From: Dehalococcoidia bacterium
GTDB taxonomy: Bacteria; Chloroflexota; Dehalococcoidia; GIF9; AB-539-J10
Length of the DNA: 64,000 nucleotides
NCBI GenBank assembly: GCA_046538235.1
Contig: JBKHJG010000001.1
Location: 60,581 to 124,580 of the forward strand
Direction: 5' to 3'
Shown here piece after piece: positions 11,612 through 56,285 of this stretch. A model generated the notes under the pieces. It was not told where the DNA came from and ran no database searches. It worked only from the letters and a program-made list of their open reading frames with translations. Position 1 is the first letter of the stretch, and each line of letters opens with the position of its first letter. The translations under genes and the position numbers were made by a program.

Positions 11612-14392
11612 CTAGTCAGCGAAGAAGTCTCTTTCCCAGGTCGCGACCGCTTCCACTGACACGCGGCTAAGATGCATGGGCTTGTACGTCCAGCTCGCAT
11701 ACAGCAATACCTGGTCATAAGCGTGCGGGCTGGGAGTTGGCGTGGGCGTTTTGCCATCCACTATCTTGAGCTCCATGAACCCGCTCTGCCCGGGCGGAAT
11801 GACGTTCTTGCCCTGCGGCAACGGCGTCGATAGCTCGGCGATCTGGTTATAGGTACCACGGTTCATGGCCGGGTGGCTGAACACGTCGGTCGGCAGGGCT
11901 CCCAGTTTGTCATACTTCTGCATACGCACCGGGGTCAGCCAGGTCGACATGTCCTCGCCGTATTCAACCTTCAGGTCAGCAATCGCCTCTTTCAACGCAT
12001 CCATAATCAGCGCATCCAGTGCCTCGCCAGTCGGGTAGCCAGGATAGTTGAGGGACCCATCAGCCCTGAACACGCGGACCAGCAGGCTGGGATAACCCTT
12101 GACCTGTCCGATCATATCTGCCGGCAGAATCCCGTCAAACACCATGGGGACGACCTTGTCGTACCAGGCATTGAAGATGGTCAGACCGGCATGATCGTAA
12201 GTAGGATTCTCATCGTCAGGCCACTTGGGTGGTACAAAATCGACATAACTGACAGGAAGAGGGGTTGCTGTAGCCCAGGCTCCGAGGTGCTCCAGGGCTG
12301 CTACAACCTCCGGGTCACTGGTCTCTCCCACATAAGCCGTGGCCGCGGTTATCAGATCCCCCGCAAAGTTCATTCCTGCGGTATTGTGGTATCCGGCAAC
12401 CTGATTAATCGTGTTCAGATGGGCGGGCGTGAGGTCTCCACCGGCGGCCAATGCGGTCACAGTATCCAGCAGTATCTGCACACGGTGACCGTCGCCCCAG
12501 TGGAAGTCACTCTCTGCAAATGGCCAGCCAGCAATTGGTTTGTTGTTCCAATTGGTGAGCCAACCCTGCTCAGGATTGATCGACCTGGGCATCTCCTCAG
12601 GCCCGGTGACGCGCACCCATTCCTGTGTTCCGTCGCCCATCAAGGGCGTCCTGGGATCGGCACCCTCCGGCTTCACCGGGAAGCGCCCGGCATGCCAGTA
12701 GCCGATGTTGCCTTCGGTATCTGCCCACAAGAAGTTGTGGTTAGGCCAGATCATCTCCACCGCCGCCTCAAACTCGTCGACGTTGGTGGCCTCCTGGAAA
12801 AGTTCCCAGCCCTGCTCGCCCGCGATCTCATTTCTGTAGAAGGGGGTGTGCAGGGTGAAGGCCGTGCCTGCGTCTACGTCCACCTCGACGATGGGCCCAT
12901 AATGCGAGCGATAGAACGTCTCCGTTACCGGCTCAGCCAGCCCGCGAACCACGAACGTCTCGGTCCTGACCTCCATGTCACGCCACTCACCCTCATACAG
13001 GTACTGAGTCGGGTTCTCGGGGTTCAGTACCAGTACACGGATGTCCATAACATCGGAGGCACCGGTGGTTGACGTCCAGGCCCCATATTCACTGACGCCG
13101 ATCAAGATGAACGGACCTGCCGACGGGAATGCCATGCCCACGGCGTTTATGCCGTCGCCATGCAGACCTATCTCCATGACAATCTGCGGAACCGAGTAGC
13201 CCATCTGGGGTCCTCCCAGTAGCAGGGCATTCCCGGTGGCCGATAGTTCAGGCCTGACGGGTAGGGCATTGCTTCCCAGTTTCCGCGGTATGCCCAGCGA
13301 CTGAAGCAGCTCATCCTGCGCCGCCCGGGACTCCGCGTATTCCACAAAGAGCTCCTCCACGCCGTCCGGCAAATCCACCAGAGAAACGGTGGTGGCGGCA
13401 GCTTCCCCGAAAACCTGGTCGGGTATCGTAACCGGTGCTCCGGCATCTTCGAGTGGGAAGAGGTCGCTCCATACCGCCCCTCCTAGCGCCTCTCCGTGCA
13501 CTGCCTGTAGGCCAAGCAAAGCAGTGTACATGTCGCCTTCGTTGCCACCCGTACCACCAAACCTCCAACCCATTAGCACCGTAACGGCAACTACATCCGA
13601 CACGGTGAACTCCTCGAGTTCGCCAATCAGCTTGTTCGCCACATATTCAATAGGCATGAGAGACGGATCGAGCAGCGCTTCATAGATGTAAAGGTTTATG
13701 CCATCTACATAGGCTTCAATCATGGGCTTGAGGTGCCGGTAGCCCGCGCCGGGATCCCAGTCGTCATACATCTCCTGTAGCTCCGCCTGGTTGTACCACA
13801 ATGCCCTCAGTTCCTTGTCCTGAGCCAGATAGTCCGGGCCCAGAAGTTCGGCAAGGCGGCCGGAAGCGGTTCTGCGCAGGACATCCGCCTGCCACAGCCT
13901 GTCCTGGGCCATGGCATAGCCAGCTCCAAAGGCCAAGTCCTCTCGCGTGTCGGCGAAGACGTGGGGAACTCCGTAGTCGTCTCTGATGATGGTAAGCAAG
14001 GGCTGCGGAGGTGGGGTGGCTGGGAATTCAGCGATTACCACATCCGATCCGGCAGCATTGCTTACCGATGCTGCACCGGCTACCTCAAAGAAGTTCGCCG
14101 GCACGCCAATGAAGGTGTAGCCTTCTTTGGCTGTCAATATGATGGTGGCCGTGTATGCTGTGTCTGCCTCAAACAGATCATGGTCGGGGTCCCAGGCCAC
14201 GGTTCCTGTGTACTGCTCCGTTGGGGTAATCGTGGTCACCGGCGTTTCACCTGTTGCCGGTGGGGTTACCCCAGAGATCTCCTCAATGTCAATTGTCTGC
14301 AGCTCGCCATCGCCGTCACTGGGTTGACAGCCAGCCACAACCAGTCCCATCACAAGCAGGGACACCAAGATAAGGTAAGTGATTCTTTTCAA
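11612..14392 (-). CDS. penicillin amidase (S45 Ntn-hydrolase) family lipoprotein with an extra ~110-aa N-terminal module; TTG start
   Basis: Lipobox (LVVAGC). Penicillin acylase alpha-subunit motifs (IIRDDYGVPHVFADT..GYAMAQDRLWQ) and beta-subunit N-terminal nucleophile context (GSNALP). 926 aa. Confidence 0.85.
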   Translation of the reverse strand: MKRITYLILVSLLVMGLVVAGCQPSDGDGELQTIDIEEISGVTPPATGETPVTTITPTEQYTGTVAWDPDHDLFEADTAYTATIILTAKEGYTFIGVPANFFEVAGAASVSNAAGSDVVIAEFPATPPPQPLLTIIRDDYGVPHVFADTREDLAFGAGYAMAQDRLWQADVLRRTASGRLAELLGPDYLAQDKELRALWYNQAELQEMYDDWDPGAGYRHLKPMIEAYVDGINLYIYEALLDPSLMPIEYVANKLIGELEEFTVSDVVAVTVLMGWRFGGTGGNEGDMYTALLGLQAVHGEALGGAVWSDLFPLEDAGAPVTIPDQVFGEAAATTVSLVDLPDGVEELFVEYAESRAAQDELLQSLGIPRKLGSNALPVRPELSATGNALLLGGPQMGYSVPQIVMEIGLHGDGINAVGMAFPSAGPFILIGVSEYGAWTSTTGASDVMDIRVLVLNPENPTQYLYEGEWRDMEVRTETFVVRGLAEPVTETFYRSHYGPIVEVDVDAGTAFTLHTPFYRNEIAGEQGWELFQEATNVDEFEAAVEMIWPNHNFLWADTEGNIGYWHAGRFPVKPEGADPRTPLMGDGTQEWVRVTGPEEMPRSINPEQGWLTNWNNKPIAGWPFAESDFHWGDGHRVQILLDTVTALAAGGDLTPAHLNTINQVAGYHNTAGMNFAGDLITAATAYVGETSDPEVVAALEHLGAWATATPLPVSYVDFVPPKWPDDENPTYDHAGLTIFNAWYDKVVPMVFDGILPADMIGQVKGYPSLLVRVFRADGSLNYPGYPTGEALDALIMDALKEAIADLKVEYGEDMSTWLTPVRMQKYDKLGALPTDVFSHPAMNRGTYNQIAELSTPLPQGKNVIPPGQSGFMELKIVDGKTPTPTPSPHAYDQVLLYASWTYKPMHLSRVSVEAVATWERDFFAD

Positions 14393-14535
14393 CCTTTAGC
14401 CTCCTTCTTGTTCTTTTGGTTATTCCGATTTCCTGGCAGTTAGGCTTTGGGCGCCGGAAGGATCCAGTCGACCACTAGTTGCCTCCGGCGACCGTTCCTT
14501 CATGCAGTACCCCGATAGATCCACCTCCTTTCTCT
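14000..14535 (-). repeat. copy 1 of a dispersed inverted duplication (leader + RBS + TTG start + signal peptide + N-terminal domain); partner at 55743-56285
   Basis: Near-identical RBS/start context (aatcgga..aaggaggc.aaaggTTGAAAAGA). ~130 aa of collinear protein identity and ~140 nt of upstream nucleotide similarity to the partner copy. Confidence 0.8.
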
Positions 14536-14754
14536 CCGGCCTCGGTCAATGCCGAGTCACAGGTTGCCCGTTTCGCCAACTTACCAGGCGATTCATGCGG
14601 AATTCGGGAAAGAACAGGGGCAAAAGAGCAGACGTTGCTGTGACCGCAATGAGGGAGCCGAAACCACGTTGATATGCGCTCGGCTGAATCTGACGTAAAC
14701 CGAAGGACTCCCCTGACGTACACACTTGACCACCGACCTAGCGTAGGCCCTTCC

Positions 14755-14785
14755 ATTATACCCCTCTTGACCAGTGAATTGTCAA
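14755..14785 (-). promoter_or_regulatory. sigma70-like promoter TTGACA-N18-TATAAT on the minus strand, ~355 nt upstream of the acylase start
   Basis: Consensus -35 and -10 hexamers read on the minus strand (plus-strand tgtcaa at 14780-14785, attata at 14755-14760). Confidence 0.5.
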
Positions 14786-14927
14786 CAGCTACCAGCTTCG
14801 ACCATGCGTGTGATCCCAGTCAGCTGCCGCTCATGCATCGAGGGGGAAGATGACCAGCGCAGAGCAGTCAGATATTCGGTGTGCACCACGAAATGCCGAA
14901 TGCCTTCTTGTAGTTGATACTGCAGTA

Positions 14928-17356
14928 TCAGGCCATCCCTACCGGGTCGACATCCACAGTCCATCCTCCCGGAAGATTGAGCCGCGACAGGATTGAGACC
15001 GGTTCAGAGCCGCGGAGGAGGAGTTGCCAGCGGTACTTGCCCCTGGTCCTGAAGGCAAATGCGGGGACGGGGCCAATCAGGCTAAGGTCGGACATGCCCT
15101 CTCCGGCCATCTCGTCAAGAACCACATGATACACCCGCTCTACCTCGCTGCGACACAGCTTCTCGTTGGTATGGCTGTAGACCAGCCGGACCAGGCGGCT
15201 GAATGGTGGATAGTTGTATTGCCGTCGGAAATCTATCTCTTTGTGGTAGAAGCCAAGATAATCATGCCGGGCAGCAGCTTCAATAATGTAGTTATCGGGG
15301 GAGTAAGTCTGGATGATAACCTTCCCTGCCTTGATACCACGGCCGGCCCTGCCCGCCACCTGGCACAGAAGCTGAAAGGTGCGCTCACCGCTCCGGAAAT
15401 CCGGAAGGTTAAGGCCGGTATCGGCGTTGATTATCCCGGCCAGTGTCACCTGAGGCAGATCCAGTCCTTTGGCTATCATCTGAGTACCGATAAGAACATC
15501 TGCCTTGTGGTCACGGAAATCGCTGAGCAACTCCTCATGAGTATACCTCCTGGTAATCACATCTCTGTCCCAGCGAAGCAATCTTGCTCCGGGAAAGAAA
15601 TGGCCCATCTCCTCCTCCACCCTCTGCGTACCGATACCCAGAAACCTGAGATCGCTCCGAGAACACTGCGGACAGGTCCGGGCCACCGGAATGGAGTAGC
15701 GGCAGCGATGACAAGAGAGCCTTTTCTCCGCCGAATGGTAGGTAAGGGCTATAGAGCAGCGCGGGCAGCGAAAGACAAAGCCGCAATTGCGACACCGGAC
15801 AAAGGTAGCTGTGCCGCGGCGGTTAAGAAAGAGGATTACCTGCTCTCCGTGCGCCAGGGCCTCCTTTATGGCAGCCAACAGGGCACGGCTAAACAGGCTT
15901 GTGTTCCCAGCCTTGAGTTCTTCCCGCAAATCCGCTATGCCCACCTCAGGAAGAGCCGTATAACCACGGGCGGTGATCCTTTCCCTCAACTCCACAAGAT
16001 GGTATTCCCCCTGCTGTGCCTTATGAAAGCTCCCAATATCAGGAGTAGCGCTACCCAGAATGACAACCGCATCGTTGAGTTGGCCCAACTTGATGGCTGT
16101 GTCCCGCGCATGGTAGCGAGGGGATTTGTCCTCCTGCTTGTAAGTCCACTCATGCTCTTCATCGATGATGATAAGACCAAGGTCGGGCAAGGGACTGAAC
16201 AAGGCGCTCCTCGGTCCGATTACGACATCGCAGTTTCCCTCAGCTATCCATTGCCATTCGTCGAACTGCTCTCCCGGAGAGAGGCGGCTGTGCAGTACTG
16301 CCACACGCCCGGGGAAGCGACTGGCAAACCTCTCCACCGTCTGCTGAGTCAGAGCGATTTCCGGAATCAGGCAGATGCCTCGCTTCCCGGCAGCCATGAC
16401 GAGGGCCAGTGCCTGCAGGTAAACCTCGGTCTTGCCGCTGCCGGTTACGCCCAAGAGAAGAAAGACCGGGGCTTTGCCGCCTTGTCCCTTCTCGCCCATA
16501 ATGGCACCCCGGAGCGATACCCAGACAGCCTGTTGGGAAGGAGTGAGAACCGGAGATGACGGGGTTGTGAGGCTGAGGTGGGACAGAGGGTCGCGCCTTA
16601 TCCTGAGCCCTTCCACTGAGACCAGCCCGCGACTCTCGAGTGCCCTGATGCTGGCGAGGGAGCAGCCGAGGCGGTCCCGCAGTTCCCGAGTTGAAACAGG
16701 CTCAGTCTGCCGTTCCAGGAACCTGAGGAGCTCCAACTGCTTATAGGCCCGTGACCCGACGAGGCGAGCCTCCTCCTCCTCGATCACCTGGCTATCAGCC
16801 GTCAGCCTGACAGCAGCAACTGTCTTGGGCCTGGCCTTCGCTGGCTCCGGTTCCAGCGTCCTCGTGATCAGCTGGCGGTCCAGCAGTTGATCGGTGATTC
16901 GCCTGGCTTTTCTTTGACCAATTGCCTTCTCCAGCTCAGCCAGGCTTGTCTTTTTTTTTCTATCATGTGGAGGACCTGTCTTTGCTCCGGAGTCAGAGGC
17001 GATTCCACTGCCAAATCCGCCGCCTGGAAGTAAGCGATTGTCCGTCTCTCAAACCCCGGAGGGGTCATCAAAGACAGCGCATCGAAAAGGGGAGCATAGT
17101 ATCGCTCGCTCATCCACTGAGCAAGCTCCACCTGAAGGTGGGAAAGTAGAGGAGCGTCAGCGACAATGCCGGCTATCTCCCTGGGTTCGGCAACCGATGG
17201 CTCCTCTGATAAGCAGAGGACGATCCCCTGAATGACCCTGGCGCCAAAAGGCACCCATACGGCCTGCCCAACGCTGATACTGAGACCGGGCGGTACGGCG
17301 TAACAGAAAGTTGAGCGACTCCCGGGCGAATTGACTGCCACCTCCGCGTATTTCAT
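14928..17356 (-). CDS. priA: primosomal protein N' (PriA helicase), interrupted by a frameshift at an A9 run (16951-16959); N-terminal ORF 16868-17356 and helicase ORF 14928-16787
   Basis: The N-terminal 3'-DNA-binding domain ([11 protein letters not shown]...VWVPFGAR) is in one frame. Walker A (GVTGSGKTEVY), DEEH and Cys-rich zinc motifs are in the next frame. The helicase frame stays open upstream through the poly-A run and encodes winged-helix-like sequence. One extra A would fuse the two ORFs into a ~809-aa protein. Confidence 0.85.
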
Positions 17357-17742
17357 CCAGAAGCCTGTTCCTCTTCTTGAGGCTTGACTTGCCCCATCGC
17401 CTTCTCCCGCCTCTCCTTAAGTCGAGCCCGCTTGGCGCTGAGCCTACGCATATGATAAAGCCTGGCCCGGCGCACATGTCCATGCCTTAGCACCTCCAGG
17501 TTCTGTACGGAAGGGGACTGGAAAGGGAAGGTCCGTTCCACTCCAATGCCATGCGACACGCGCCTCACCGTGAAGTTGCCTCCATCAACTCCCTTCCTGA
17601 TCCTGATGACCATTCCCTGGAAGTGCTGCAGTCTCTCCTTGTCCCCTTCCACGGTCTTGAGACTGACCTTGACCGTATCACCGGGGGAAACCTGGGGAAT
17701 ATTGGGGTTCATCCTAGGCTTAACGAATTCTCTAACATCCAT
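17353..17742 (-). CDS. rplS: 50S ribosomal protein L19
   Basis: Strong similarity to bacterial L19 ([27 protein letters not shown]...GIGVERTF). Confidence 0.92.
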
Positions 17743-18449
17743 TTCCTTTCCTCATCGCAGAGATTAGCGTTCTTCAGGAGCTCCGGGCGTCGTTCGGCCG
17801 TTCGCAAGATAGACTGGCGACGCCGCCACTGAGCGATCTCGCCGTGATTTCCCGAGAGTAGAACCGGGGGTACTGACCAACCCCGGTAGACCTGGGGCCT
17901 GGTGTACTGGGGATATTCCAAAAGCCCATCGCTGTGAGAGTCGCTGCCTGCAGAGTCCTCCGACCCGAGCACTCCCGGTATGACCCTAACTATAGCGTCC
18001 ACCACCACCATAGCTGCTGGTTCCCCTCCGCTGAGCACGTAGTCCCCGATGCTGATTGCATCGGTAGCCAAATGCTCACATACCCTCTCATCCACGCCTT
18101 CGTAGTGGCCGCAAATCAACATAAGGTGCCGGTGGAGGGACAGTTCCTCAGCCACAGACTGAGAGAAAGGCCGGCCCTGAGGGGTTAGCAATATGATAGT
18201 CATCTCTCCTGCGCCAAGCTGCTCTTTTACGGCTTCTGCTGCCTCAAAGATAGGCTCGGGCCTCAGAACCATGCCTGGCCCGCCCCCATAAGGATAATCA
18301 TCCACAGCATGATGCCTGTCATGCGCATAGTCGCGAATATCGTGGATAGCGATATCCACCAGCCCCCTATCTCTGGCACGCCTGATCATGCTCTGATCAA
18401 GCGGAGCGATAAGCATTTCAGGGAAGAGACATAGAATATCGATGCGCAT
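17709..18449 (-). CDS. trmD: tRNA (guanine37-N1)-methyltransferase
   Basis: TrmD motifs ([12 protein letters not shown]...[12 protein letters not shown]). Start likely the internal Met; the ORF track extends it to 18464. trmD-rplS order is conserved. Confidence 0.9.
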
Positions 18450-18481
18450 AGATTCTGTCGCCAAGCCCTTTCAAAGTGCAT

Positions 18482-18510
18482 ATCTTACCACGCACGCTTC
18501 GACAAGACAA
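18482..18510 (-). promoter_or_regulatory. candidate minus-strand promoter TTGTCT-N17-TAAGAT for trmD-rplS-priA
   Basis: Hexamers read on the minus strand just upstream of the trmD start. Divergent from the mraZ promoter. Confidence 0.3.
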
Positions 18511-18632
18511 AGTCTCTTGGCCTTCCCCCTGCCCTTGCGGCGAAGTGGATCTATCAGGCACCTCGGGCCGGGCCGGTTTTCAGTCGCCTCTACGAAAATC
18601 GACGGAAAATTCGCAAAAGGCGCTCCAAGGTA

Positions 18633-18660
18633 TTGACAAAACAGAAATAAGGTTTATAAT
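18633..18660 (+). promoter_or_regulatory. sigma70-consensus promoter TTGACA-N16-TATAAT for the mraZ operon
   Basis: Perfect -35 (18633-18638) and -10 (18655-18660) hexamers, ~100 nt upstream of mraZ. Confidence 0.55.
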
Positions 18661-18666
18661 ACAATT

Positions 18667-18744: not shown

Positions 18745-18763
18745 TTAACTGAGGCAAATCAAG

Positions 18764-20128: not shown

Positions 20129-20152
20129 GCAGTATCTTCAGCAACAAAGGAG

Positions 20153-22712: not shown

Positions 22713-22733
22713 CTCAGAAGATACCTTTAAATC

Positions 22734-22747
22734 AGTCCCGTGAGGCT
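22734..22747 (+). promoter_or_regulatory. PyrR binding loop (AGUCCCGUGAGGCU) in the pyr leader
   Basis: Matches the PyrR RNA-recognition consensus ARUCCNGNGAGGYU at every position. Confidence 0.6.
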
Positions 22748-22789
22748 GGTAAGGGGCGTTATGCTACAACACAGCGTAATAGGAACACC

Positions 22790-22830
22790 GACTCGAACCT
22801 CTTGCCAGTTTGCAGGCAGGAGGTTTTTTA
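22790..22830 (+). terminator. pyr attenuator: hairpin (cctcttgcc...ggcaggagg) followed by TTTTTT, immediately 5' of the pyrR GTG start and sequestering the RBS
   Basis: Stem plus U-tract between the PyrR box and the start codon, the classic PyrR-dependent attenuation arrangement. Confidence 0.45.
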
Positions 22831-23409
22831 GTGCCTGAAAAGGTTCTCCTCACTCCAAGGGAGATAGAGCGGGCCCTGGCCCGTATTGCTCACGAGATCG
22901 TAGAAAGGAACAAGGGCGCGGAAGGGGTTGTGCTGGTAGGGATGCGAACCCGCGGAGTACCTCTAGCCTGGCGGGTAGCCGGGATAATTGAGAGCTTTGA
23001 AAGAACGCGTGTCCCGGTGGGTACTCTGGATATCGGTCTGTATCGCGATGACATCTCCCCTACGGAGTCAGAACCGGCCAGCCAGAGCTACACTGAGATC
23101 CCCACGGCTATCACCGATAGGCCGGTAGTCCTGGTGGACGATGTTCTCTATACGGGAAGGAGCATCCGGGCTGCTATGGACGCCCTTATGGACCTGGGGC
23201 GTCCCAGCTCTGTTCAGTTGGCTGTACTGATTGATCGCGGTCATCGCGAGTTACCCATCCGCGCCGATTACGTTGGCAAGAATATACCCAGCGCCAAGGG
23301 CGAGCAGATACAGGTCCAGCTGGCGGAGACTGATGGCGTAGACCGGGTGATAATCGCCAGTCCGGCCGGGGGAAACTACGCGCTGGAAACTAAGGAGGGC
23401 GTCTCGTGA
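22831..23409 (+). CDS. pyrR: bifunctional pyrimidine operon regulator / uracil phosphoribosyltransferase PyrR
   Basis: PRTase motif ([20 protein letters not shown]) and typical PyrR N-terminus. GTG start at 22831; the ORF track extends it to 22810. Confidence 0.9.
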
Positions 23410-27329: not shown

Positions 27330-30300
27330 ATGTCACAAGTCTCCAAGGTCTTAGTCATCGGCTCGGGGCCGATAGTCATCGGACAGGCGGCGGAGTTCGA
27401 CTATTCCGGCACTCAGGCCTGCCGCGCTCTACGTGAGGAGGGCGTGAACACGGTCCTAGTGAACTCCAACCCGGCAACCATCATGACCGACGAGGGCATC
27501 GCCGATATCGTGTATATCGAGCCGCTGACCGTGGAGGTCCTGGCCCGCATAATCGACAGGGAACGGCCCGATGGCCTATTGGCCACCCTAGGGGGACAAA
27601 CAGGGCTTAACCTGGCGGTGGAGCTGGCCGATGGCGGGATGCTCGACACCTACGATGTGCAGTCCCTGGGCACGCCCATAGACACAATCAAGAAGGCTGA
27701 GGAGAGGTCCCTGTTCAAGCAACTCCTTGTTGATATTGGCGAGCCTGTGCCGGCCAGCGCCACCGTGAAATCGGTTGAGGAGGCCGCGAAACTGGCAGAC
27801 TCCATTGGTCTGCCCCTTATTGTCCGTCCGTCTTACACCCTGGGTGGCAGCGGCGGCGGCATCGCCCGCACTGTGAAAGAACTTGAGGAGATTGTGGGCA
27901 GCGGCCTGGAATCCAGCATGACCCGTGAAGTCCTGGTCGAGCAGTGTATTTCAGGGTGGAAAGAGATCGAATACGAAGTCATGCGGGATGGTGCCGACAA
28001 CTGCATCGCCGTCTGCTGTATGGAGAACATCGATCCCATGGGAATACATACCGGGGACAGCATAGTGGTAGCTCCCAGCCAGACGCTCACGGACAGGGAA
28101 TACCAGATGCTCAGGTCGGCCAGCCTGAAGATCATACGAGCACTGAAAATTGAGGGCGGCTGCAACATACAGTTCGCCCTGCCGCCGAGCCCGGTAGTGG
28201 CCGAGCAATGGACCGCCTGCCGAAAGCAGATTTCGGACCGCGCCTATTACGTAATCGAGGTCAACCCGCGCGTCAGCCGCAGTTCGGCCCTGGCCAGCAA
28301 GGCCGCCGGCTATCCCATTGCCCGAGTAGCTGCCAAGATAGCCATAGGCAGGAGGCTTGATGAAATATCGAACAAGGTCACAGGCAGGACGTCGGCATGT
28401 TTCGAACCAGCCCTGGACTACTGCGTAGTCAAAATTCCCAGGTGGCCCTTTGACAAGTTCGCCCTGGGCGACCGAGGAATTGGCAGTCAGATGAAGGCCA
28501 CCGGTGAGGTGATGGCCATCGACAGGTGTTTTGAGGCTGCCCTGCAGAAGGCAGTGCGGTCGCTGGAATCCGGCAAACACACCCTGCTCTGGGAGGATCC
28601 CTGCTGGAGCAAAGGGGAAGGGCTCAGCCTCTACCCCCTCCATCCTAACGACCTAAGGCTATGGGCGATCATGGCCGCGCTGCGGAGGCAGACTACCTGT
28701 GAAGAGCTATCGCGGACCACCGGAATAGACCCCTGGTTCATCCACAAGCTCAAGAACATCGTGGACATGGAGCGGAGGCTGCTTGCCGAATCCCTGGACC
28801 CCGGGCTCCTGCTGGAAGCAAAGAGACTGGGCTTTTCAGATGCGCAGGTGGGCACCCTGGCCGACCGACTGCCCGACCAGATAAGGCAACTCCGTCATGA
28901 GTGGGGCCTTCGGCCGGCGTACAAAATGGTGGATACCTCCGCTTCAGAATATCAGGCCGAGAGCCCCTATTTCTACAGTACCTACGAGAAAGAGAATGAA
29001 GCTGAGCCGTTGAATGATGGCAAAGCTGTGGTCATCGGCAGCGGACCTATACGCATCGGACAGGGAATTGAGTTTGACTATTGCTGCGTCCATGCAGCCT
29101 GGGCCCTCAGGGAGGCAGGTTTGAGAAGCATCCTGGTCAACTCCAATCCCGAGACGGTTTCCACCGACTTCGACACGAGCGACCGTCTCTACTTCGAACC
29201 ACTGGATGAGGAGCACGTCCGGGATATTCTGGAGAATGAGCGCAACGACGGTCCGCCGCCATCCATCGTTCAGTTCGGCGGGCAAACACCGATTAACCTG
29301 GTCGGGCTCTTAGCACGCAACAACCTGCCGATACTTGGCTCAAGTGCTGAGACTACGGATATAGCCGAAGATCGCCGCCGTTTCGAGGATTTCCTGGACA
29401 GATTGGGCATCCCCCAGCCTCCCGGCGCCGGGGTGACTTCGCTGGAGGAGGCGCTGGACATAGCCGGGGTCCTAGGCTTCCCCGTACTGGTGCGCCCCAG
29501 CTATGTACTGGGCGGCAGAGCCATGGAGATTGTACACAACGAAGGCGAGTTAATCCGTTACCTGACGCTGGCTCTGGAGATGGACAAGCAGCATCCTGTG
29601 CTCATTGACAAGTACCTGCAAGGGAAAGAAATCGAGGTCGACGCCATTTGCGACGGAAAAGATGTGCTCATCCCGGGCGTGATGGAACACATTGAACGGG
29701 CCGGTGTCCATAGCGGCGATTCTATAGCCGTGTACCCCGGCGTGGATCTGGCCAGCACTGAAGTAGATACTATAGCAGGTTATGTCACCAGGATCGGACT
29801 GGCACTCCAGGTCAGCGGCCTGCTCAACATACAGATGGTGATCATACGCGAGGATGATAGCTCCTCCGTATATGTGCTGGAGGTGAATCCTCGAGCCAGT
29901 CGGACGGTGCCCTTCATATCTAAGGTGACTGGTATACCCATGATCAAGATTGCCACCAAGGTAATGGCCGGAATCGGCCTGGGCGAACAAGGCTATGCCG
30001 GCGGCCTATGGAGAGGACAACAAAAGGTCGTTGGCGTGAAAGCTCCTGTCTTCTCCATGTCAAAACTGAGCGGTGTGGACGGCTACCTGGGTCCCGAGAT
30101 GAAGTCCACGGGCGAGGTGATGGGCATCGATTATGGCTTCGAGGCGGCTATGATCAAAGCGCTCCTGGCTGCCGGACTGATGCTCCCTCAGGGGGGCAGG
30201 CTGCTGCTCAGTATCGCCGATAGGGACAAACCCGAATCGCTGCCTCTGATAAGGCAATTGCACGCCCTTCACCACGAGCTATATGCCACTGAAGGCACTG

Positions 30301-30635
30301 CAATCATGATTGAGTCTATGGGGCTGCCGGTAAAGATGGTGACCAAGAAGCTGAATGAGGGGCATCCTAATGTCGTTGATGTCATACGAGACCACTCTGT
30401 GAACGGGGTAATCAACACCATCACCGGTGGACGTGTCCAGCTGCAGGACGGGTTCGCTATCAGACGTGCCGCCGTAGAAAGAAGGATACCCTGCTTCACG
30501 TCGCTGGATACCGCGCGCGTAGCAATAGGAGCGCTGGCAAACGGCAGTCGGCTCTTCAACGTCCAACCACTCAGTGATTATTTTAAAGGCAAAGATGCCA
30601 ATGCAAAAGACATGGCTACGGAGCAAAGGCTGTAG
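27330..30635 (+). CDS. carB: carbamoyl-phosphate synthase large subunit
   Basis: 1101 aa with duplicated ATP-grasp halves, an oligomerisation domain and an MGS-like domain. Confidence 0.97.
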
Positions 30636-47928: not shown

Positions 47929-48061
47929 TTTGCGGTCAAGGTCTTCTCAGCTTCTCTGCCGCAGCCAGGATCTTTTTTCGTCCCGGCCGTCGGCGGTCGT
48001 ATACGAACCGCCCGGGGAGATCTGCCACGCACCGCCATAACCTCCTGGCTCAGTGTGGCAG

Positions 48062-49228: not shown

Positions 49229-49354
49229 ATCCTGCCTTTGTGCCTGCAAAGCAGGGCCTGCAACGGGCCCAACGTCTCCGCGACCAGCCAGTATAGCACG
49301 GTTGCTGCCCGGGTCCCCAAGCCCAGTCTGTGAATTTCCTATCAAGTATCTTTC

Positions 49355-52105: not shown

Positions 52106-52154
52106 CTCCTCTCACCCTTCCTGGTGGAGACCACCTGGTGTAGCTTCCTTTGGA

Positions 52155-53309
52155 TCAGGCCATTGCCTGCGCTACCGCGATTGCCTGCTCCAGGTCCTCA
52201 ATCAAGTCATCAATGTTCTCCAGGCCTACGGATAGCCGGATGAGTTCATCCGTAATCCCTACCCTCTCTCTGTATTCCTTCGGCACTGAGGCATGGCTCG
52301 TGGTGGCCGACTGCCCTGCCAGCGAAGCCAGGCCGCCCAGTGATTCTGCCAGAGAGAAGACCTTGAGATTGCGCAGAAAGGCGTTGACACTCTCGACTCC
52401 ACCTTTCAGTTCCAAAGATACCACTCCACCGAAGCCTGTCATCTGTTTCTCGGCGATCTCGTATCCAGCATGGGACTTAAGCCCGGGATAGAACACCCGC
52501 CTTACCGCAGGGTGCTCCTGGAGATAGTTGGCTACGGCCATGGCATTCTCCTGATGCCCCTTCATCCTCACCGGCAGGGTCTCAATCCCCCGAAGCACCA
52601 ACCAGCAATCAAACGGCGAGGCACCTGTTCCCATAGCGCCGAGCAGAGATTGTATCCTCTCAGCCAGCTCACTATCGCCAGTCACCACAGCACCCCCGAT
52701 GACGTCGCAGTGTCCGTTAAGATACTTGCTGGTGGAGTGGAATACAACGTCAACTCCATATTCAATCGGCCTCAAGAAATAGGGCGTGGCAAAGGTGTTA
52801 TCTGCTACCGTGAGCAGCTTATGCCGCCGGGCAATATCAACCACCATTTCGAGGTCAATCACGTTGAGCAGCGGATTGGACAGGGTCTCCAGCCACAGCA
52901 TTCTGGTATTGGGTCTTATCGCCTCCTCGATCCTCTGCTTGTTGTCCATTCTGACAAAGGTGAATTCCAGCCCAAAGGCCTTCATTACACTCTGGAACAA
53001 TGTGTAGGTTCCCCCATACATATCGTCAAGCGAGATCACGTGGTCCCCTGTTTTCAGCAGATGCATGATGGTCGTCTCAGCGGCCATCCCGCTGGCAAAA
53101 GCAAACCCTGCCTTCCCTCCCTCGAGCTGGGCAACGGTGTCCTCGAGAACCCTCCTTGTCGGGTTTGCCAGGCGCGAGTAGTCCCAACCCCTCGTCTTCC
53201 CCACGTCCTCAAAGACGAAGGTCGCGCTCTGGTAGATAGGCACAGAAATAGCGCCGGTTGCGCTATCCGGCCTATCTCCGCCATGAATAGCTATGGTTTC
53301 AAATCTCAT
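52155..53309 (-). CDS. PLP-dependent cystathionine gamma-synthase/beta-lyase / methionine gamma-lyase family enzyme
   Basis: Cys/Met-metabolism PLP fold with Schiff-base motif (STSKYLNGH). Start at the internal Met (MRFETIAIHGG). Confidence 0.85.
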   Translation of the reverse strand: MRFETIAIHGGDRPDSATGAISVPIYQSATFVFEDVGKTRGWDYSRLANPTRRVLEDTVAQLEGGKAGFAFASGMAAETTIMHLLKTGDHVISLDDMYGGTYTLFQSVMKAFGLEFTFVRMDNKQRIEEAIRPNTRMLWLETLSNPLLNVIDLEMVVDIARRHKLLTVADNTFATPYFLRPIEYGVDVVFHSTSKYLNGHCDVIGGAVVTGDSELAERIQSLLGAMGTGASPFDCWLVLRGIETLPVRMKGHQENAMAVANYLQEHPAVRRVFYPGLKSHAGYEIAEKQMTGFGGVVSLELKGGVESVNAFLRNLKVFSLAESLGGLASLAGQSATTSHASVPKEYRERVGITDELIRLSVGLENIDDLIEDLEQAIAVAQAMA

Positions 53310-53349
53310 ATTCGCCCTCCTCGACTGAATACCGCTTTCGCATACCGGT

Positions 53350-53766
53350 TCATACTTTGCTCCTTTGTCGGTCAACAAGGTCCTGCAAGGTCGCCGAATC
53401 CAGTACCCGGTTCATCGCGTCGCTCATCTCCATCCAGATGTCACGGCTGGCGCATAGCGCAGAGCGATGGCATAGCGATGGATCTTGGATACACGCCGCG
53501 GGCGCGATGGACCCTTCAAGCACCCTTACTACCTCACTGAGCATGATGTCGGAAGGAGACCTGCACAGCGAGACACCGCCCCCAGCCCCCCGAGCGCTCC
53601 TCACCAGCCCGGCGGCTATGACAGGCTTAATTAAATGCTCCAGATAGGGCAGCGAGATCTCCTGCCTTTGCGCAATATCCTTCAGCGGGACCAGCCCCTC
53701 ACCTTGATGAAGGGCCAGGTCCAGGAGTGCCCTCAGGCCATATCTTCCCCTCGTAGAGAGCTTCAT
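53350..53766 (-). CDS. Rrf2-family transcriptional regulator (IscR/CymR-like, three-Cys cluster motif)
   Basis: N-terminal wHTH (MKLSTRGRYGLRALLDLA) and Cys triad (CIQDPSLCHRSALC). Confidence 0.88.
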   Translation of the reverse strand: MKLSTRGRYGLRALLDLALHQGEGLVPLKDIAQRQEISLPYLEHLIKPVIAAGLVRSARGAGGGVSLCRSPSDIMLSEVVRVLEGSIAPAACIQDPSLCHRSALCASRDIWMEMSDAMNRVLDSATLQDLVDRQRSKV

Positions 53767-53783
53767 CGGACCGTCCCTCAATT

Positions 53784-53814
53784 GTTGACTAGAATTGTCA
53801 ACTTACCATATCAT
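53784..53814 (+). promoter_or_regulatory. inverted repeat GTTGAC-N7-GTCAAC overlapping a +strand TTGACT-N17-TATCAT promoter (cysS), immediately upstream of the divergent Rrf2 gene
   Basis: Palindrome at 53784-53802. -35 at 53786-53791 and -10 at 53809-53814. Candidate Rrf2 operator in a shared divergent control region. Confidence 0.35.
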
Positions 53815-53919
53815 AACCGCTGGGAAAGGTTCGGTCAAGTTTTGAAAAAGCACCCGAACTGAGATATGATTCGCTGAACGGGCTGAAACTGCTGCCCACC
53901 ATCCTGCAAGGCGACTGAG

Positions 53920-55287
53920 ATGAAGGTATTCAACACCCTGTCCGGACAGAAGCAGGAATTCGAGCCCGGCAACGACGTGGTGACCATGTACGTCTGCGGC
54001 ATCACAGCCTATGACGAAAGCCATATCGGGCACGCCATGAGCTATATGGTCTTCGATGTAGTCAGGCGCTATCTGGAGTTCAGCGGTTACAGCGTTAAGC
54101 ACGTGCAGAACTTCACGGACATAGAGGACAAGATCATAGAGCGCGCCAACCAACTGCAGGTTCCGCCTTCGGAGCTGACGGATAAGTACATTGCCAGGTA
54201 TTTTGCCGACATGGATGCATTGAATATCCAGCGTGCCCACGCCTACCCCAAGGCAACCGAGGAAGTACCCACAATAATCGAGATGATCCAGGGCCTTCTT
54301 GCCAAAGGCTACGCCTACGAGTCTCAGGGTAGCGTGTACTTCCGCGTCAGGAGTTTCCCCGGTTACGGCAAACTGAGCCGCCGCAACCTGGCCGATATGG
54401 TCTCCCAGGAATGCAGCTATGCGGAACGGAAGGAATACCCGCTGGACTTCGCCCTATGGAAGGCATACAAGCCCGGCGAGCCTTTCTGGGACAGCCCGTG
54501 GGGTCGGGGCAGGCCGGGGTGGCACATAGAGTGCAGCGCCATGGCGCTCAAGTACCTCGGCGAACGCATAGACATCCATGGCGGCGGACAGGACCTCGTG
54601 TTCCCCCATCATGAGAACGAGATAGCGCAGTCAGAGGCCTTCACCGGGCAAGTACCTTTTGCCCGATACTGGCTGCATAACGGCTTGCTCCAGCTGGATA
54701 AGGTAAAGATGAGTAAGTCCACCGGCAATCTGGTGAGCGTCAGGGACGTGCTGAGCCGCTTCTCCTCCGACGCCGTTCGGCTCTTTGTGCTCAGCTCACA
54801 CTACCGGAGCCCACTCACATACAGCGAACAGGCGCTGGAAGCAACTGAGAGGGGCGCAGAAGGCCTGCGCCGGGCACTGGCCCAGGGAACGGATGACGGC
54901 CGTGGACAAGCCACCCTCAACGCGGCGCCGTTTGAGCAGAGATTTGTCGAGGCGATGGATGACGACTTCAACACGCCCCGGGCGATAGCAGCACTGTTCG
55001 AACTGACCCGGGAGATAAACCGCAGCGCCGAGCAAGGCGCGGATGTGAGTGAGGCTCAGCAAACCCTGCTCAAGCTGGCAGGCACTCTAGGCCTTACTTT
55101 GAAGGAGAGGTCTCAGGTTCCACACGATGCCGAGGCCTTTGTCAGCCTGCTAGTCTCGGTCAGAGACGACCTGCGGCGGAACCAGCAATGGCAGCTGGCC
55201 GATAAGATCAGGAGTGGACTGAGCAACGCAGGAGTAACCCTTGAGGACAGTCCTCAAGGTACAAGATGGACATATAGGAGGCCGTAA
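53920..55287 (+). CDS. cysS: cysteine--tRNA ligase
   Basis: HIGH (HIGHAMSY) and KMSKS motifs, zinc-binding Cys residues. 455 aa. Confidence 0.95.
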
Positions 55288-55472
55288 CCGGGAGCGGCGG
55301 AGCGTTGCATTCAAGCGGGCGTTGCCGCCCGGGAGAAGCCCTGCTTCCGCCACGCCCAGGATGCTTGAGAGCGATCACGCAGGGCCCTATCTTTAACAGA
55401 ATCTTAACATTTCCATGCTACCATTCAATTGCCAAAGGGGAAAACGACAGACGTGAGGGATCGCAGTCATCG

Positions 55473-55499
55473 TTGACAAACACCCGAAGCCGATATACC
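55473..55499 (+). promoter_or_regulatory. candidate promoter TTGACA-N15-TATACC ~390 nt upstream of the SBP gene
   Basis: Good -35 hexamer, weak -10 and short spacer. Positionally analogous to the strong promoter of the paralogous leader at 14755-14785. Confidence 0.3.
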
Positions 55500-55742
55500 A
55501 TAAGAAAGGCGACCGAAGCGGCAAAAGGTAAGGTTGCGCGTGACCTGGCGACAGTTGCAGTGATGCCGAGATTCGGAGATGGTCGAGATTTCCAGTTTTC
55601 AGCAGCTTCTTGGTCTCCCTTTGCTTTGCTTGTTAGGGCGGACAGCAAGGTAGACAGAGCACTGACGATGTAGTTGCCCCATGTCTGGACAGTGAAGACC
55701 TGGCGGATCAGGCAACTACATCGTAGCGGGAGACGAGAGCAT

Positions 55743-56285
55743 GAAAGGAGGTGGTTCTATCGGTATATGGCATGAAGGGTGAGCTGCTGGAGGCAACTGG
55801 TGGTCGACCGGTTTCTTCCGGCACTAAAAGCGCCAAGGGTTTGCTCCGGTAGAATCGGAGCAACGACAGAAAACAAAAAGGAGGCCAAAGGTTGAAAAGA
55901 GTTCTTTACCTGATCATAGCTACTCTGCTGGTCATGGGGCTGGTGCTGGCTGGCTGTCCTAGCAACGGCAACGGCGGAGATACAACAGTCACCACCAAAG
56001 CAATACAGGGAGTAACCCCACCGGCAACCGGCGACAGCCCGGTGACCGCAATCACAGAAACGGCTCAGTTCACGGGGACCGTGTCCTGGAGTCCTGCTCA
56101 TGATCCGTTTGAGGCCAGTACGGAGTACACGGCCACCATCGAGCTCACGGCCAAGACAGGATACACCTTCGACGGCGTGTCGGCGAACTTCTTCACAGTA
56201 TCCGGAGCAACTGCGACCAACCCGGCCGACTCCGGCGTGGTAACCGCGGTATTCCCGGAGACGGCGGCCGCGCCCGCCCCTAAGA
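55743..56285 (+). repeat. copy 2 of the dispersed inverted duplication (leader + RBS + TTG start + signal peptide + N-terminal domain); partner at 14000-14535
   Basis: See copy 1. Extended nucleotide similarity runs from the gaaaggaggtgg motif through the first ~390 nt of coding sequence. Confidence 0.8.

Follow-up and report, generated by a model that had tools for sequence, protein, structure and literature searches.

The genes of an uncultured member of the Dehalococcoidia for a penicillin-acylase-family protein and for a Liv-type substrate-binding protein of an ABC transporter share a 5' leader, the signal peptide of a lipoprotein and a beta domain of 90 aa, after which they diverge completely. 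We regard it as reasonably probable that this shared stretch is a 5' cassette for expression, export and spacing, which the acylase gene has borrowed, which has been converted in related genomes, and which would serve to co-express and co-display the two proteins.

A common 5' cassette of two unrelated genes

Both open reading frames start with TTG. The acylase matches Penicil_amidase (Pfam PF01804) over residues 134-914 with an E-value of 5.9e-127 and is 100% identical to a 'penicillin acylase family protein [Dehalococcoidia bacterium]'. The binding protein matches Peripla_BP_6 (PF13458) over residues 136-473 with an E-value of 5.5e-14 and is 100% identical to an 'ABC transporter substrate-binding protein [Dehalococcoidia bacterium]'. 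The N-termini of both proteins can be aligned over about 128 aa before they diverge (54% identity over 167 aa in BLASTP; E-value of 9e-42). At the DNA level, 14532..14022 (minus strand) and 55743..56256 (plus strand) are 70.8% identical over 521 nt (blastn, E-value of 2e-63), and the nucleotide alignment assigns about 140-150 nt of this shared DNA to the region 5' of the start codon and about 370 nt to coding sequence. The view of an earlier, sequence-only reading that two otherwise unrelated proteins have leader, signal peptide and N-terminal domain in common is supported by BLASTP, the alignment and blastn, as is its claim of similarity at the nucleotide level; this similarity extends far past a generic signal peptide. 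The shared context of the ribosome-binding site that the same reading described was also confirmed, but the conserved upstream block is longer than quoted and runs from GAAAGGAGGTGG onward. Searches of the window (the whole stretch of 64,000 nucleotides that was analysed) with tblastn and nhmmer detected these two copies only, and no third one.

As read from the translation, the signal peptide of copy A has a K/R n-region, a hydrophobic core and an [LV][AV]GC lipobox, and it would be expected to be cleaved and lipidated. A near-identical peptide (MK[KR]I[VIA]FLIIA.LLV.GLVLPGC) directly follows the leader in the metagenome loci. The order of the transporter genes 3' of the binding-protein gene is the same after its orthologues in loci L081, L082, L083 and L087.

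Features of the two cassette copies and their surroundings (positions within the window)
Feature	Position	Strand	Evidence or remark
Acylase gene (copy A)	11612-14392	-	926 aa, TTG start
Penicillin-acylase-family (Ntn hydrolase) body, gene A	11612..14014	-	PF01804
90-aa beta domain, copy A, aa 36-126	14015..14287	-	profile matches; AlphaFold2 model
TTG start and lipoprotein signal peptide MKRITYLILVSLLVMGLVVAGC, lipobox VAGC, copy A	14327..14392	-	translation
Shared 5' leader, copy A	14393..14536	-	blastn to 14532; nhmmer leader profile 14446-14534, E 7.7e-21; alignments
Hairpin P2, copy A	14450..14493	-	RNAalifold and pair counts, 39 leaders; centroid of single-sequence fold
SD-like GAAAGGAGGTGG, copy A	14521..14532	-	first base 139 nt before start codon
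Putative sigma-70 promoter, acylase gene (TTGACA, 19 nt, TATAAT)	14755..14785	-	sequence reading
Putative sigma-70 promoter, binding-protein gene (TTGACA, 17 nt, TACCAT)	55473..55501	+	consensus scan, 10/12 positions
Shared 5' leader, copy B	55743..55891	+	blastn; nhmmer 55733-55829, E 3.2e-25; alignments
SD-like GAAAGGAGGTGG, copy B	55743..55754	+	first base 149 nt before start codon
Hairpin P2, copy B	55783..55824	+	RNAalifold, pair counts, fold
Hairpin P3 (GCUCCGGU-AGA-AUCGGAGC), copy B	55843..55861	+	covariation; predicted in centroid fold
Liv-type binding-protein gene (copy B)	55892-57793	+	633 aa, TTG start
TTG start and lipoprotein signal peptide MKRVLYLIIATLLVMGLVLAGC, copy B	55892..55957	+	translation
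90-aa beta domain, copy B, aa 35-124	55994..56263	+	hmmsearch on identical protein P0156; alignments
Liv-type (Peripla_BP_6) substrate-binding body, gene B	56264..57793	+	PF13458
Partner ABC transporter genes, whole block	58283..61786	.	Pfam
Partner ABC transporter permeases, two BPD_transp_2	58283-59197 and 59199-60242	+	Pfam
Partner ABC ATPases, two	60274-61053 and 61016-61786	-	Pfam

The leader as a probable structured RNA

The shared leader is preceded by a putative sigma-70 promoter in both genes, approximately 220 nt upstream in the case of the acylase gene and 270 nt upstream in the case of the binding-protein gene. The acylase promoter was missed by the consensus scan, which allowed spacers of 16-18 nt rather than the actual 19 nt; the same motif is kept at L001 and L134, which are orthologous loci. 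In 13 of the metagenome binding-protein loci, a homologous TTGACAAAGACT...TACAAT promoter is present some 190-200 nt before the leader. Judging from their sequences, both motifs in the window would be expected to function as promoters.

Across the leaders, the Shine-Dalgarno-like GAAAGGAGGTGG lies 125-150 nt 5' of the start codon. In 37 of the 39 aligned leaders, GAAAGGAGGTGG and GGTCGAC are invariant in part because the search pattern required them, and independent support comes from the eight leaders identified by protein homology or direct comparison (the window copies winA and winB, L001, L081, L082, L087, L133 and L134), all of which contain GAAAGGAGGTGG. No start codon is conserved at initiation distance from the SD-like AGAAAGGAGGUGG, and an upstream open reading frame that begins 18-20 nt downstream of GAAAGGAGGTGG is not conserved across leaders.

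We infer that the leader acts as an RNA, namely a structured 5' UTR with two hairpins, P2 and P3, that are supported by covariation. Pairing was found in 92.5% of the cells in the 39 leaders, compared to 22-47% when the partners were slid, and double changes were present at 13 pairs. None of 500 shuffles attained the observed value. P3 shows compensatory changes at all six of its pairs across leaders, and P2 of copy A has a compensatory C-G where most leaders show U-A. P3 is absent from L082 and from window copy A, where its counterpart (14422-14439) has lost the 5' arm, and it is therefore dispensable. The single-sequence folds are of unexceptional stability (z of -1.8 to +0.4). The SD-like motif is mostly unpaired in three of four such folds; in two of these three (L100 and L133), a weak hairpin of four pairs takes up part of it, and in the minimum-energy fold of copy B it is partly paired. 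The true SD is free of pairing in the minimum-energy folds of L100 and L133. For the window copies, it is unpaired in both centroids but partly paired in the minimum-energy folds. The strong conservation of the P2 loop is more what one would expect of an RNA that binds a specific protein or ligand than of a stabiliser of the generic kind.

Compensatory changes that maintain the pairing of the stems would not be expected under selection on a DNA site and, since the conserved sigma-70-like promoters are located 190-270 nt upstream, the conserved block would be inside the transcript. For these reasons, and because the consensus scan revealed no promoter-like hexamers inside the block, it is unlikely that this block represents a transcription-factor operator with the GGTCGAC(C) palindrome as its core, or an internal promoter of co-regulated genes, even though GGTCGAC is palindromic and invariant in the independently found leaders, and a gene for an Rrf2-family regulator is located near one orthologous locus.

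Genes preceded by the leader

The pattern scan yielded 45 metagenome leader loci, and the next gene was a Liv-type binding-protein gene with the conserved signal peptide in all 45. Most of these loci have the leader and signal peptide without the beta domain. Second leaders on the same contigs also have binding-protein paralogs downstream, and among all loci examined the acylase is the sole other passenger (window copy A, L001, L133 and L134). These findings go part of the way to establishing that, in this Dehalococcoidia lineage, the Liv-type binding-protein paralogs, which form a large family, have the leader and signal peptide as their standard front part and, likewise in part, that one clade of this family additionally carries the beta domain.

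The presence of several leader copies per genome is regulon-like, and it is conceivable, though we consider it doubtful, that the leader is a specific regulatory RNA (a riboswitch, or a site for a translational repressor or activator) that conveys one signal to all paralogs and the acylase. P2 with its invariant loop would then act as recognition element, and the several GGA-rich motifs, one of which is inside the true SD, as binding sites. This would agree with the covariation that backs the structure and with the very strong conservation of the loop and internal-loop sequences, which is also seen in leaders found without the DNA pattern. However, the leader matched no Rfam family, even at E-values up to 10, no terminator was found in the leader regions, no helix obviously sequesters the SD, and no candidate protein partner was found. 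A single metabolite sensor is also difficult to reconcile with the passengers, which comprise an acylase as well as paralogs with diverged binding domains (many are 44-56% identical to the window protein) that probably have different ligands.

The beta domain

Structure prediction for the module, as suggested in the sequence-only reading, was performed with AlphaFold2 (alignment-based) and produced a model of the copy A domain with six strands and a pLDDT of 95.8. Between copies A and B, the domain has a dN/dS of about 0.25, and it is therefore under selection. No family in Pfam or NCBIfam matched the domain, in line with the earlier statement that it matched no family which that reading could name, and no solved structural neighbour was found. 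The idea that the domain might be lineage-specific proved incorrect. Indeed, it is an uncatalogued repeat domain with 4224 protein cluster representatives in many phyla and tandem copies of up to 21, and there are 232 confirmed loci in the genomes of other species, the 80 listed ones belonging to many bacterial phyla and some archaea. Fusions to SLH, FGE-sulfatase and DUF285 passengers occur elsewhere, and the domain shares a small beta-sandwich-like fold and tandem arrays with the Ig-like domains of S-layer and adhesin surface arrays. What is restricted to the lineage is the RNA leader, which had been treated merely as context of the ribosome-binding site.

In other Dehalococcoidia, PF18998 (InlB B-repeat / Flg_new_2) occupies the same slot, behind the lipobox and in front of the catalytic or binding domain. 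Like the present domain, it occurs in both binding proteins and acylases, is of similar size and all-beta, and has a local G[YFW]xF motif. However, the Pfam score is below the threshold (13.6 versus 23.6 bits) and the profile-profile probability is 1%. PF18998 is therefore a positional analogue and not a demonstrated homologue.

Divergence, gene conversion and probable origin

The window copies have a nucleotide identity of 70%, a dS of about 1.07, a dN of about 0.27 and a longest exact match of 17 nt. The cassettes in this genome have simply diverged under purifying selection, and the recent duplication or ongoing conversion proposed in the sequence-only reading does not apply to them, whereas conversion was encountered in related genomes. 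The acylase cassettes are not monophyletic, as the acylase cassette L133 and the binding-protein cassette L082 group together with 100% bootstrap support. These two are 88% identical with an 86-nt exact tract, and they would stem from one genome, given their common assembly and similar coverage (about 12x each). At 88% identity, the L001 acylase cassette is closer to the L087 binding-protein cassette than to its own ortholog (76%), and the orthologous gene bodies of the window and L001 are only 80% identical. These relationships indicate that, in some of the descendant lineages, gene conversion has moved sequence between acylase and binding-protein cassettes.

Efficient RecA-dependent recombination in E. 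coli requires at least about 25 nt of exact identity. With a dS of about 1.0 and a longest exact match of 17 nt, the window copies are therefore a poor substrate for inversion, and not recent. Furthermore, the acylase gene has priA as its direct upstream neighbour in the window, L001, L134 and L137 (in L133 this place is taken by an ABC-ATPase gene), and the window and L081 both have cysS upstream of the binding-protein gene; the arrangement in the window is therefore that of its relatives. No recombinase was found among the 21 window ORFs scanned with Pfam, a set to which most ORFs of the 41-kb interval do not belong. Accordingly, it is most improbable that the copies are recent duplicates, or inverted repeats kept identical by conversion, that drive a 41-kb inversion by analogy with the inversions through which Mollicutes form chimeric surface-protein genes and turn their expression on or off. 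Their inverted orientation 41 kb apart would be suitable for this, conversion does take place in related genomes, and the Ureaplasma MBA N-terminal paralogues with a conserved 5' region recombine by inversion (PMC3047005).

The acylase loci have retained their own promoter and their own leader upstream of the SD-like motif. Most likely, the acylase gene borrowed the 3' part of the leader, the signal peptide and the domain from a binding-protein gene and kept its own promoter and distal leader, where the direction of transfer is read from the passenger counts, the tree being unrooted.

Related systems and the proposed role of the cassette

Conserved 5' cassettes are known from the 'upstream homology box' ospE/ospF/erp genes of Borrelia (Marconi et al. 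1996, as cited in PMC10016077) and the MBA N-terminal paralogues of Ureaplasma (PMC3047005). According to work cited in the latter source, inversion in the vsp system of Mycoplasma bovis joins a silent ORF to an active promoter, and in the vsa system of M. pulmonis a promoter, RBS and 5' ORF segment are put before the 3' end of a silent gene. As far as the Borrelia and Ureaplasma systems are described in these sources, they resemble the present case in that conservation covers the upstream DNA and the part coding for the signal peptide, with mature proteins that differ, in that family members recombine through their shared 5' ends, and in that the products are surface lipoproteins. In contrast, the passengers here are an enzyme and a transporter binding protein with unrelated folds rather than antigen families, the cassette additionally includes a domain that folds and an RNA structure with covariation, nothing points to phase variation or to a system of site-specific inversion, and the host is a free-living sediment bacterium. 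We therefore draw an analogy and do not claim membership.

The STAB-SD motif of Bacillus thuringiensis cryIIIA is reportedly a strong SD-like sequence of the 5' UTR, at more than 100 nt from the start codon. The leader resembles it in having the strong SD-like GAAAGGAGG in the 5' UTR at such a distance, no conserved start codon at initiation distance, and a promoter far upstream. It differs from STAB-SD in that its role is proposed from sequence alone and in the phylum Chloroflexota, and in that the motif forms part of a longer conserved structure (P2, P3) that is common to many genes per genome. By this analogy, the leader is probably an mRNA stabiliser. Leaders with a strong SD and no start codon are described as stabilising mRNA in Bacillus (review PMC3997798, citing Agaisse and Lereclus 1996). 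No gene for RNase J or another 5'-dependent nuclease was found in the window itself.

In the proposed expression-export-spacer cassette, a structured 5' UTR of about 140 nt is followed by a strong SD with TTG, the lipoprotein signal peptide, a short Gly/Asn/Asp-rich linker and the domain. The SD-like motif with P2 and P3 probably holds a 30S subunit and blocks 5'-end-dependent decay in the style of STAB-SD, and the stabilised mRNA would allow high and coordinated expression. The signal peptide would tether both proteins to the membrane as lipoproteins, and the beta domain may be a rigid stalk or surface-array unit that spaces the catalytic or binding domain off the membrane, as suggested by its position and its occurrence in tandem arrays and SLH proteins. 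The cassette would thus have the extracellular acylase co-expressed and co-displayed with the binding protein of an ABC importer. In L135 and L136, which belong to other Dehalococcoidia, the acylase gene and the binding-protein/permease operon are adjacent and divergent, and both genes have the same kind of N-terminal domain, there PF18998.

A 5' cassette common to genes A and B

The proteins encoded by gene A (acylase) and gene B (Liv-type binding protein) align from residue 1 to approximately residue 128 (BLASTP E-value of 9e-42), and past this point BLASTP showed no similarity above chance. As the sequence-only reading had proposed, the similarity extends to the nucleotide level, with 70.8% identity over 521 nt in BLASTN (E-value of 2e-63), of which about 140-150 nt lie upstream of the start codon and about 370 nt are coding. 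The sharing of this cassette, which consists of a 5' leader, a lipoprotein signal peptide and a 90-aa beta domain, was confirmed to be no effect of chance or composition. Searches of the window with tblastn, blastn and an nhmmer leader profile revealed no further copies beyond these two.

Coordinates of the features discussed. Positions are those of the window, except for rows headed by the name of another locus.
Feature	Position	Strand	Description
Gene A	11612-14392	-	926 aa, TTG start, penicillin-amidase family
Gene B	55892-57793	+	633 aa, TTG start, Liv-type binding protein
Copy A, BLASTN match	14532..14022	-	matched to copy B
Copy B, BLASTN match	55743..56256	+	matched to copy A
Distal 5' UTR of gene B	55473-55742		conserved in binding-protein genes
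ORF antisense to copy A	13961-14443	+	160 aa
ORF antisense to copy B	55757-56407	-	216 aa
Neighbours of gene A	2954-11402		SCP2, Fe-ADH, aldehyde:ferredoxin oxidoreductase, AMP-forming acyl-CoA ligase, HpaB-family enzyme, and FrhB/FdhB-family (F420 hydrogenase/dehydrogenase beta subunit) protein with 4Fe-4S domains
Second acyl-CoA ligase	61788-63503		beside the Liv ATPase genes
PyrR binding site	22720-22832	+	Rfam RF00515
ORF overlapping the PyrR site	from 22810	+	first of a series of ORFs
Large ORF of that series	27330-30635	+	1101 aa
L084	703-1307		stand-alone lipoprotein, 129 aa
L125	2851-3015		truncated locus
L135	1-5203		acylase adjoining binding-protein/permease operon
L136	1-4288		acylase adjoining binding-protein/permease operon

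Judged by its full-length profile match, the gene A product is a member of the penicillin amidase/Ntn-hydrolase family (PF01804, aa 134-914, E-value of 5.9e-127, 425.9 bits against a cut-off of 21.3, profile positions 3-674 of 675), and acylase activity and autoproteolytic maturation are predicted at most. The gene B product matches PF13458 (aa 136-473, E-value of 5.5e-14, 53 bits against a cut-off of 31.7). Gene B is followed by two BPD_transp_2 permease genes, adjoined by two ABC_tran ATPase genes on the opposite strand and BCA_ABC_TP_C; the profile match together with these adjoining LivH/LivM permease and LivG/LivF ATPase genes identifies its predicted product as a Liv-type periplasmic binding protein. 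The translations of both copies show an MKR n-region, an LLVMGLV core and a lipobox (VAGC in copy A, LAGC in copy B), and by these features both proteins are predicted Lgt/LspA-type lipoproteins.

The two copies had been taken for a recent duplication or a case of ongoing gene conversion. This view is contradicted for the window genome by a dS of 1.07 (dN of 0.27) over 126 codons and by a longest exact match of only 17 nt, and the copies are old. For the beta domain by itself the values were 0.99 and 0.25, respectively; synonymous sites are therefore near saturation and the protein is under purifying selection. The suggestion that the inverted copies could mediate inversion of the intervening segment fares no better, since a longest exact match of 17 nt makes them a poor substrate for homologous inversion and the flanks are syntenic with relatives: the acylase gene has priA as its direct upstream neighbour in the window and in the loci L001, L134 and L137, and the binding-protein gene is preceded by cysS in the window and in L081. 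These conserved flanks likewise argue against inversion between the copies. No recombinase was found among the 21 window ORFs scanned with Pfam, a scan that covered a minority of the ORFs in the 41-kb interval, and with flanking synteny kept and exact repeats of at most 17 nt there was no sign of site-specific inversion or phase variation.

The ORFs antisense to the two copies gave no evidence of being coding sequences, their mutual similarity being only the reverse translation of homologous cassettes.

Conversion between acylase and binding-protein cassettes in relatives

Upstream of GAAAGGAGGTGG, a Shine-Dalgarno (SD)-like motif of the leader, the acylase loci (window copy A, L001 and L134) share a promoter and distal leader of their own that are unrelated to those of the binding-protein genes. 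Downstream, similarity stops exactly where the acylase body begins. These boundaries at both ends suggest that the acylase carries a graft, namely the proximal part of a binding-protein leader together with signal peptide and domain.

In L001, which derives from another Dehalococcoidia MAG, the priA-acylase pair is syntenic with that of the window and the orthologous bodies are 80% identical (79.9% for the acylase and 79.6% for priA). Its acylase cassette is 76% identical to window copy A and 87-88% identical to the cassette of the binding-protein locus L087, with 95-100% identity between L001 and L087 from -85 to +35. Neighbour-joining paired the acylase cassette of L133 with the binding-protein cassette of L082 at 100% bootstrap support; the two are 88% identical and share an exact tract of 86 nt. 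From their common assembly (ERZ25510679) and similar coverage of about 12x we infer that they belong to one genome. Window copy A grouped weakly with the L134 acylase cassette (bootstrap of 69.5%, long branches). The cassette tree thus conflicts with the relationships of the gene bodies in these relatives, not in the window genome, and this conflict indicates that conversion between the acylase and binding-protein families occurs in the lineage. Gene conversion, as proposed by the sequence-only reading, accordingly stands for L133/L082 and L001/L087, but in the window genome it is not recent.

The leader as a probable structured RNA element

The upstream similarity had been described as a near-identical ribosome-binding context. 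It is indeed shared, but it is a conserved block of about 140 nt rather than merely such a context. The block is conserved in both window copies and in the loci L001, L081, L082, L087, L133 and L134, which were reached via protein homology, and a DNA pattern derived from it matched 45 metagenome contigs. All 45 matches are followed by a Liv-type binding-protein gene, 124-153 nt from the first base of the block, and contigs with two leaders carry two binding-protein paralogs. As these leaders were found by an exact pattern, invariance within the pattern is ascertained and not observed. The signal peptide that follows is nearly invariant (MK[KR]I[VIA]FLIIA.LLV.GLVLPGC), and the 90-aa domain is absent from most of the 45 genes. 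Conversely, none of 79 domain-containing loci of other species (L002-L080) has the leader.

In three of the metagenome loci (L088, L103 and L105) the first 25 codons after the leader lack the lipobox cysteine (e.g. ...LIVPGMVSAQ and ...VVPGMVGGA); these proteins keep the leader and the hydrophobic core and may be secreted via signal peptidase I rather than lipid-anchored. The truncated locus L125, of which only 46 codons are available, was first read as a binding-protein gene but is probably another acylase copy, given a promoter and distal leader similar to those at the L133 acylase locus (TTGACAGTT.CTCGTTGGTGGTGGTACCAT).

In an alignment of 39 distinct leaders, the order of elements is the extended SD-like motif AGAAAGGAGGTGGTTC, a long hairpin (P2), a variable hairpin (P3), an A-rich stretch and the true SD sequence AAGGAGG. 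The first base of GAAAGGAGGTGG lies 139 nt (copy A) or 149 nt (copy B) before the start codon. Conserved sigma-70-like promoters were found 190-270 nt upstream of the block, which places it inside a 5' UTR of about 330-420 nt.

Conservation in the binding-protein genes extends to the distal 5' UTR, over about 190-200 nt upstream of the leader in the 45 metagenome loci. This distal part reaches from the TTGACAAAGACT...TACAAT promoter to the SD-like motif. Further SD-like motifs lie in it, AAAGGAGG immediately behind the -10 element and CGGAGGC after that, as does a conserved GGTCGAG/TTGGTCT segment; copy B has an insertion of about 60 nt in this region.

Pair counts in the 39-leader alignment, which was not fitted to structure, showed that 92.5% of cells in the leader helices pair, versus 22-47% when the partners were slid. 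Thirteen pairs were changed on both sides, six of the six pairs of P3 covary, and none of 500 shuffles reached the observed values. When four leaders were folded singly, P2 appeared in three centroids and, for the remaining leader, in the minimum-energy fold. The SD-like motif was largely unpaired in three of the four folds, two of which (L100 and L133) place part of it in a weak hairpin of four pairs, and part of it was paired in the minimum-energy fold of copy B. The fold energies of the single sequences gave no significant z-scores, so that the case for leader structure rests on covariation only.

Several candidate identities for the leader were rejected. A transcription attenuator is contradicted by the absence of a terminator-like hairpin followed by a U-run at the leader. 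A known RNA family, T-box included, found no match in Rfam 15 at the gathering score, neither in the window leaders nor in 20 related loci, and at E-values of up to 10 both leaders gave only noise matches to eukaryotic and archaeal RNA families. An upstream ORF or leader peptide was considered on account of an ATG-initiated ORF of 23-27 codons, excluding the stop, in copies A and B, L001 and L087; this ORF is cut off after 4 codons in L082 and continues in L081, and conservation ignores codon positions.

We favour the view that the leader may act as an RNA element whose closest known mechanism would be STAB-SD-class stabilisation. STAB-SD stabilisers, which combine a strong SD sequence lacking an initiation codon with 5' structures, protect mRNA from 5'-end-dependent decay (PMC3997798). 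The sequence features of this class are present here: the SD-like GAAAGGAGG is part of the 5' UTR and well removed from the start codon, and no start codon is conserved at initiation distance from it. No rRNA gene is present in the window. By this analogy STAB-SD-type stabilisation is a possible specific mechanism of the leader, though we would put its chances somewhat below even. Its main competitor is a specific regulatory RNA in which P2 would bind a protein or a ligand.

A widespread beta domain

The sequence-only reading could name no family for the domain, and this holds: there is no match in Pfam or NCBIfam, the sole signal being a sub-threshold match of copy B to Flg_new_2, and the domain is absent from the PDB. 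The further idea that it is lineage-specific must be abandoned. An exhaustive profile search returned 4224 cluster representatives at an E-value of 0.001 or less, 841 of them at 1e-30 or less, with up to 21 copies per protein. The search method matters, as a word-indexed protein search with the domain alone gave 5 matches. A genome scan confirmed 232 loci from many phyla. The 80 that were listed, at 54-74% identity, belong to Bacillota, Spirochaetota, Chloroflexota, Actinomycetota, Atribacterota, Bacteroidota, Chlorobiota, candidate-phyla-radiation bacteria and archaea. Both single copies and arrays of the domain exist, fused to SLH, FGE-sulfatase, DUF285 and other passengers, and proteins built only of tandem copies returned no Pfam family. 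AlphaFold2 with a 43-sequence alignment predicted an all-beta fold of six strands (pLDDT of 95.8); a run on aa 1-135 without an alignment was unusable (pLDDT of 46.8). By its distribution, the 90-aa domain forms a large family of repeats in surface proteins that is so far uncatalogued.

Identity to the window copies remains at 54-74% even in Thermoplasmata and Micrarchaeota archaea (among L002-L080), which is unusually high for a surface repeat and suggests either strong constraint or frequent horizontal transfer. L084, like L085 and L086, encodes a stand-alone 129-aa lipoprotein made of a signal peptide and one domain copy. Identity to window copy A is 68-71% for P0001 and P0002 of this kind. 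A 72-aa ORF precedes and overlaps each of the stand-alone genes, and the leader is absent. In L084 the gene is followed by one for a large Big_1/CarboxypepD_reg-type surface protein.

Homology to PF18998 (InlB B-repeat/Flg_new_2), a domain that occupies the same position in relatives, was rejected on the basis of the sub-threshold Pfam score and the profile-profile comparison. Copy B scored 13.6 bits (E-value of 0.067) against a gathering score of 23.6 and copy A gave no match, while hhalign of the two domain alignments returned a probability of 1% over 19 aligned columns. Structural likeness to a solved InlB B-repeat was not found either. The two domains are thus positional analogues, without demonstrated homology, and close homologues of both window proteins show three N-terminal forms.

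N-terminal forms among close homologues of the two window proteins, with protein lengths.
N-terminal form	Binding protein	Acylase
No extra domain	about 515-545 aa	about 810-839 aa
PF18998 domain	about 590-600 aa	about 895-935 aa
Present 90-aa domain	631-634 aa	922-931 aa

In L135 and L136, which are from other Dehalococcoidia, a PF18998-acylase gene adjoins a PF18998-binding-protein/permease operon in divergent orientation. This adjacency indicates that the acylase and binding-protein families are functionally linked, and that a shared N-terminal domain recurs in such a pair with another domain in its place. Inverted-repeat searches of the intergenic region between the two genes detected nothing in L136, and in L135 no more than the 82-nt region of the signal peptide. 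The acylase leader of both loci is a shorter variant that keeps GGAAAGGAGGTGG about 65 nt before the ATG.

Possible roles of the cassette

As read from the sequence, the cassette is best understood as a shared front end that would set expression, export and anchoring, and spacing. With its lipoprotein signal peptide, each of the two proteins would be membrane-anchored, and the beta domain could serve as a stalk, consistent with its tandem arrays and its occurrence in S-layer-type proteins. An extracellular acylase and the binding protein of an importer might in this way be co-displayed, a proposal that fits the L135/L136 adjacency and the acyl-CoA ligases, aldehyde:ferredoxin oxidoreductase and HpaB-like enzyme encoded in the window. 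The link between acylase and Liv transporter suggests extracellular deacylation feeding an amino-acid or organic-acid importer, and this hypothesis is worth testing because Dehalococcoidia are abundant in sediments. The acyl-CoA ligases and other enzymes encoded near genes A and B may hint at the use of aryl or acyl acids freed by the acylase. A literature search on penicillin acylase and substrate-binding proteins in Dehalococcoidia returned nothing relevant.

The cassette suggests how an uncultured lineage, in which operon linkage of the classical kind is lacking, could endow two unrelated surface proteins with common expression and display properties. The whole 5' unit of RNA leader, export signal and stalk domain would be copied and occasionally re-homogenised, as a bacterial counterpart of sharing a 5' exon. 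Two uncatalogued elements are involved, namely a covariation-supported 5' UTR structure that is specific to Dehalococcoidia Liv-type binding-protein genes and absent from Rfam, and a very widespread repeat domain; their addition to reference libraries would improve the annotation of many metagenomic surface proteins. A more far-reaching interpretation, which we regard as rather unlikely in its entirety, is that the leader (about 140 nt, or about 330 nt with the conserved distal part in binding-protein genes) represents a new class of cis-acting RNA defining a regulon of surface lipoproteins in sediment Dehalococcoidia, that leader, signal peptide and stalk form a portable front end that can be grafted by conversion onto unrelated genes, wiring an extracellular enzyme to the importer of its product, and that the domain is a large new fold family without a solved representative.

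A conserved upstream region and signal peptide preceding divergent mature proteins, with recombining 5' ends, are described for the Borrelia upstream-homology-box genes (PMC10016077), and the same pattern is known from Ureaplasma MBA N-terminal paralogues and related Mollicutes surface-antigen families (PMC3047005). The window cassette resembles these systems in its conserved upstream region and signal peptide before divergent mature regions, and in the conversion of shared 5' ends, seen here in relatives. Unlike them, its passengers are of unrelated fold and function, it includes a folded domain and a covarying RNA structure, it gives no evidence of inversion or phase variation, and its host is a free-living sediment bacterium.

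Lastly, a PyrR binding site was detected between genes A and B (54.6 bits against a gathering score of 54). It is located immediately upstream of the first of a series of plus-strand ORFs, which it slightly overlaps, and is probably the attenuator of a pyrimidine-biosynthesis operon.
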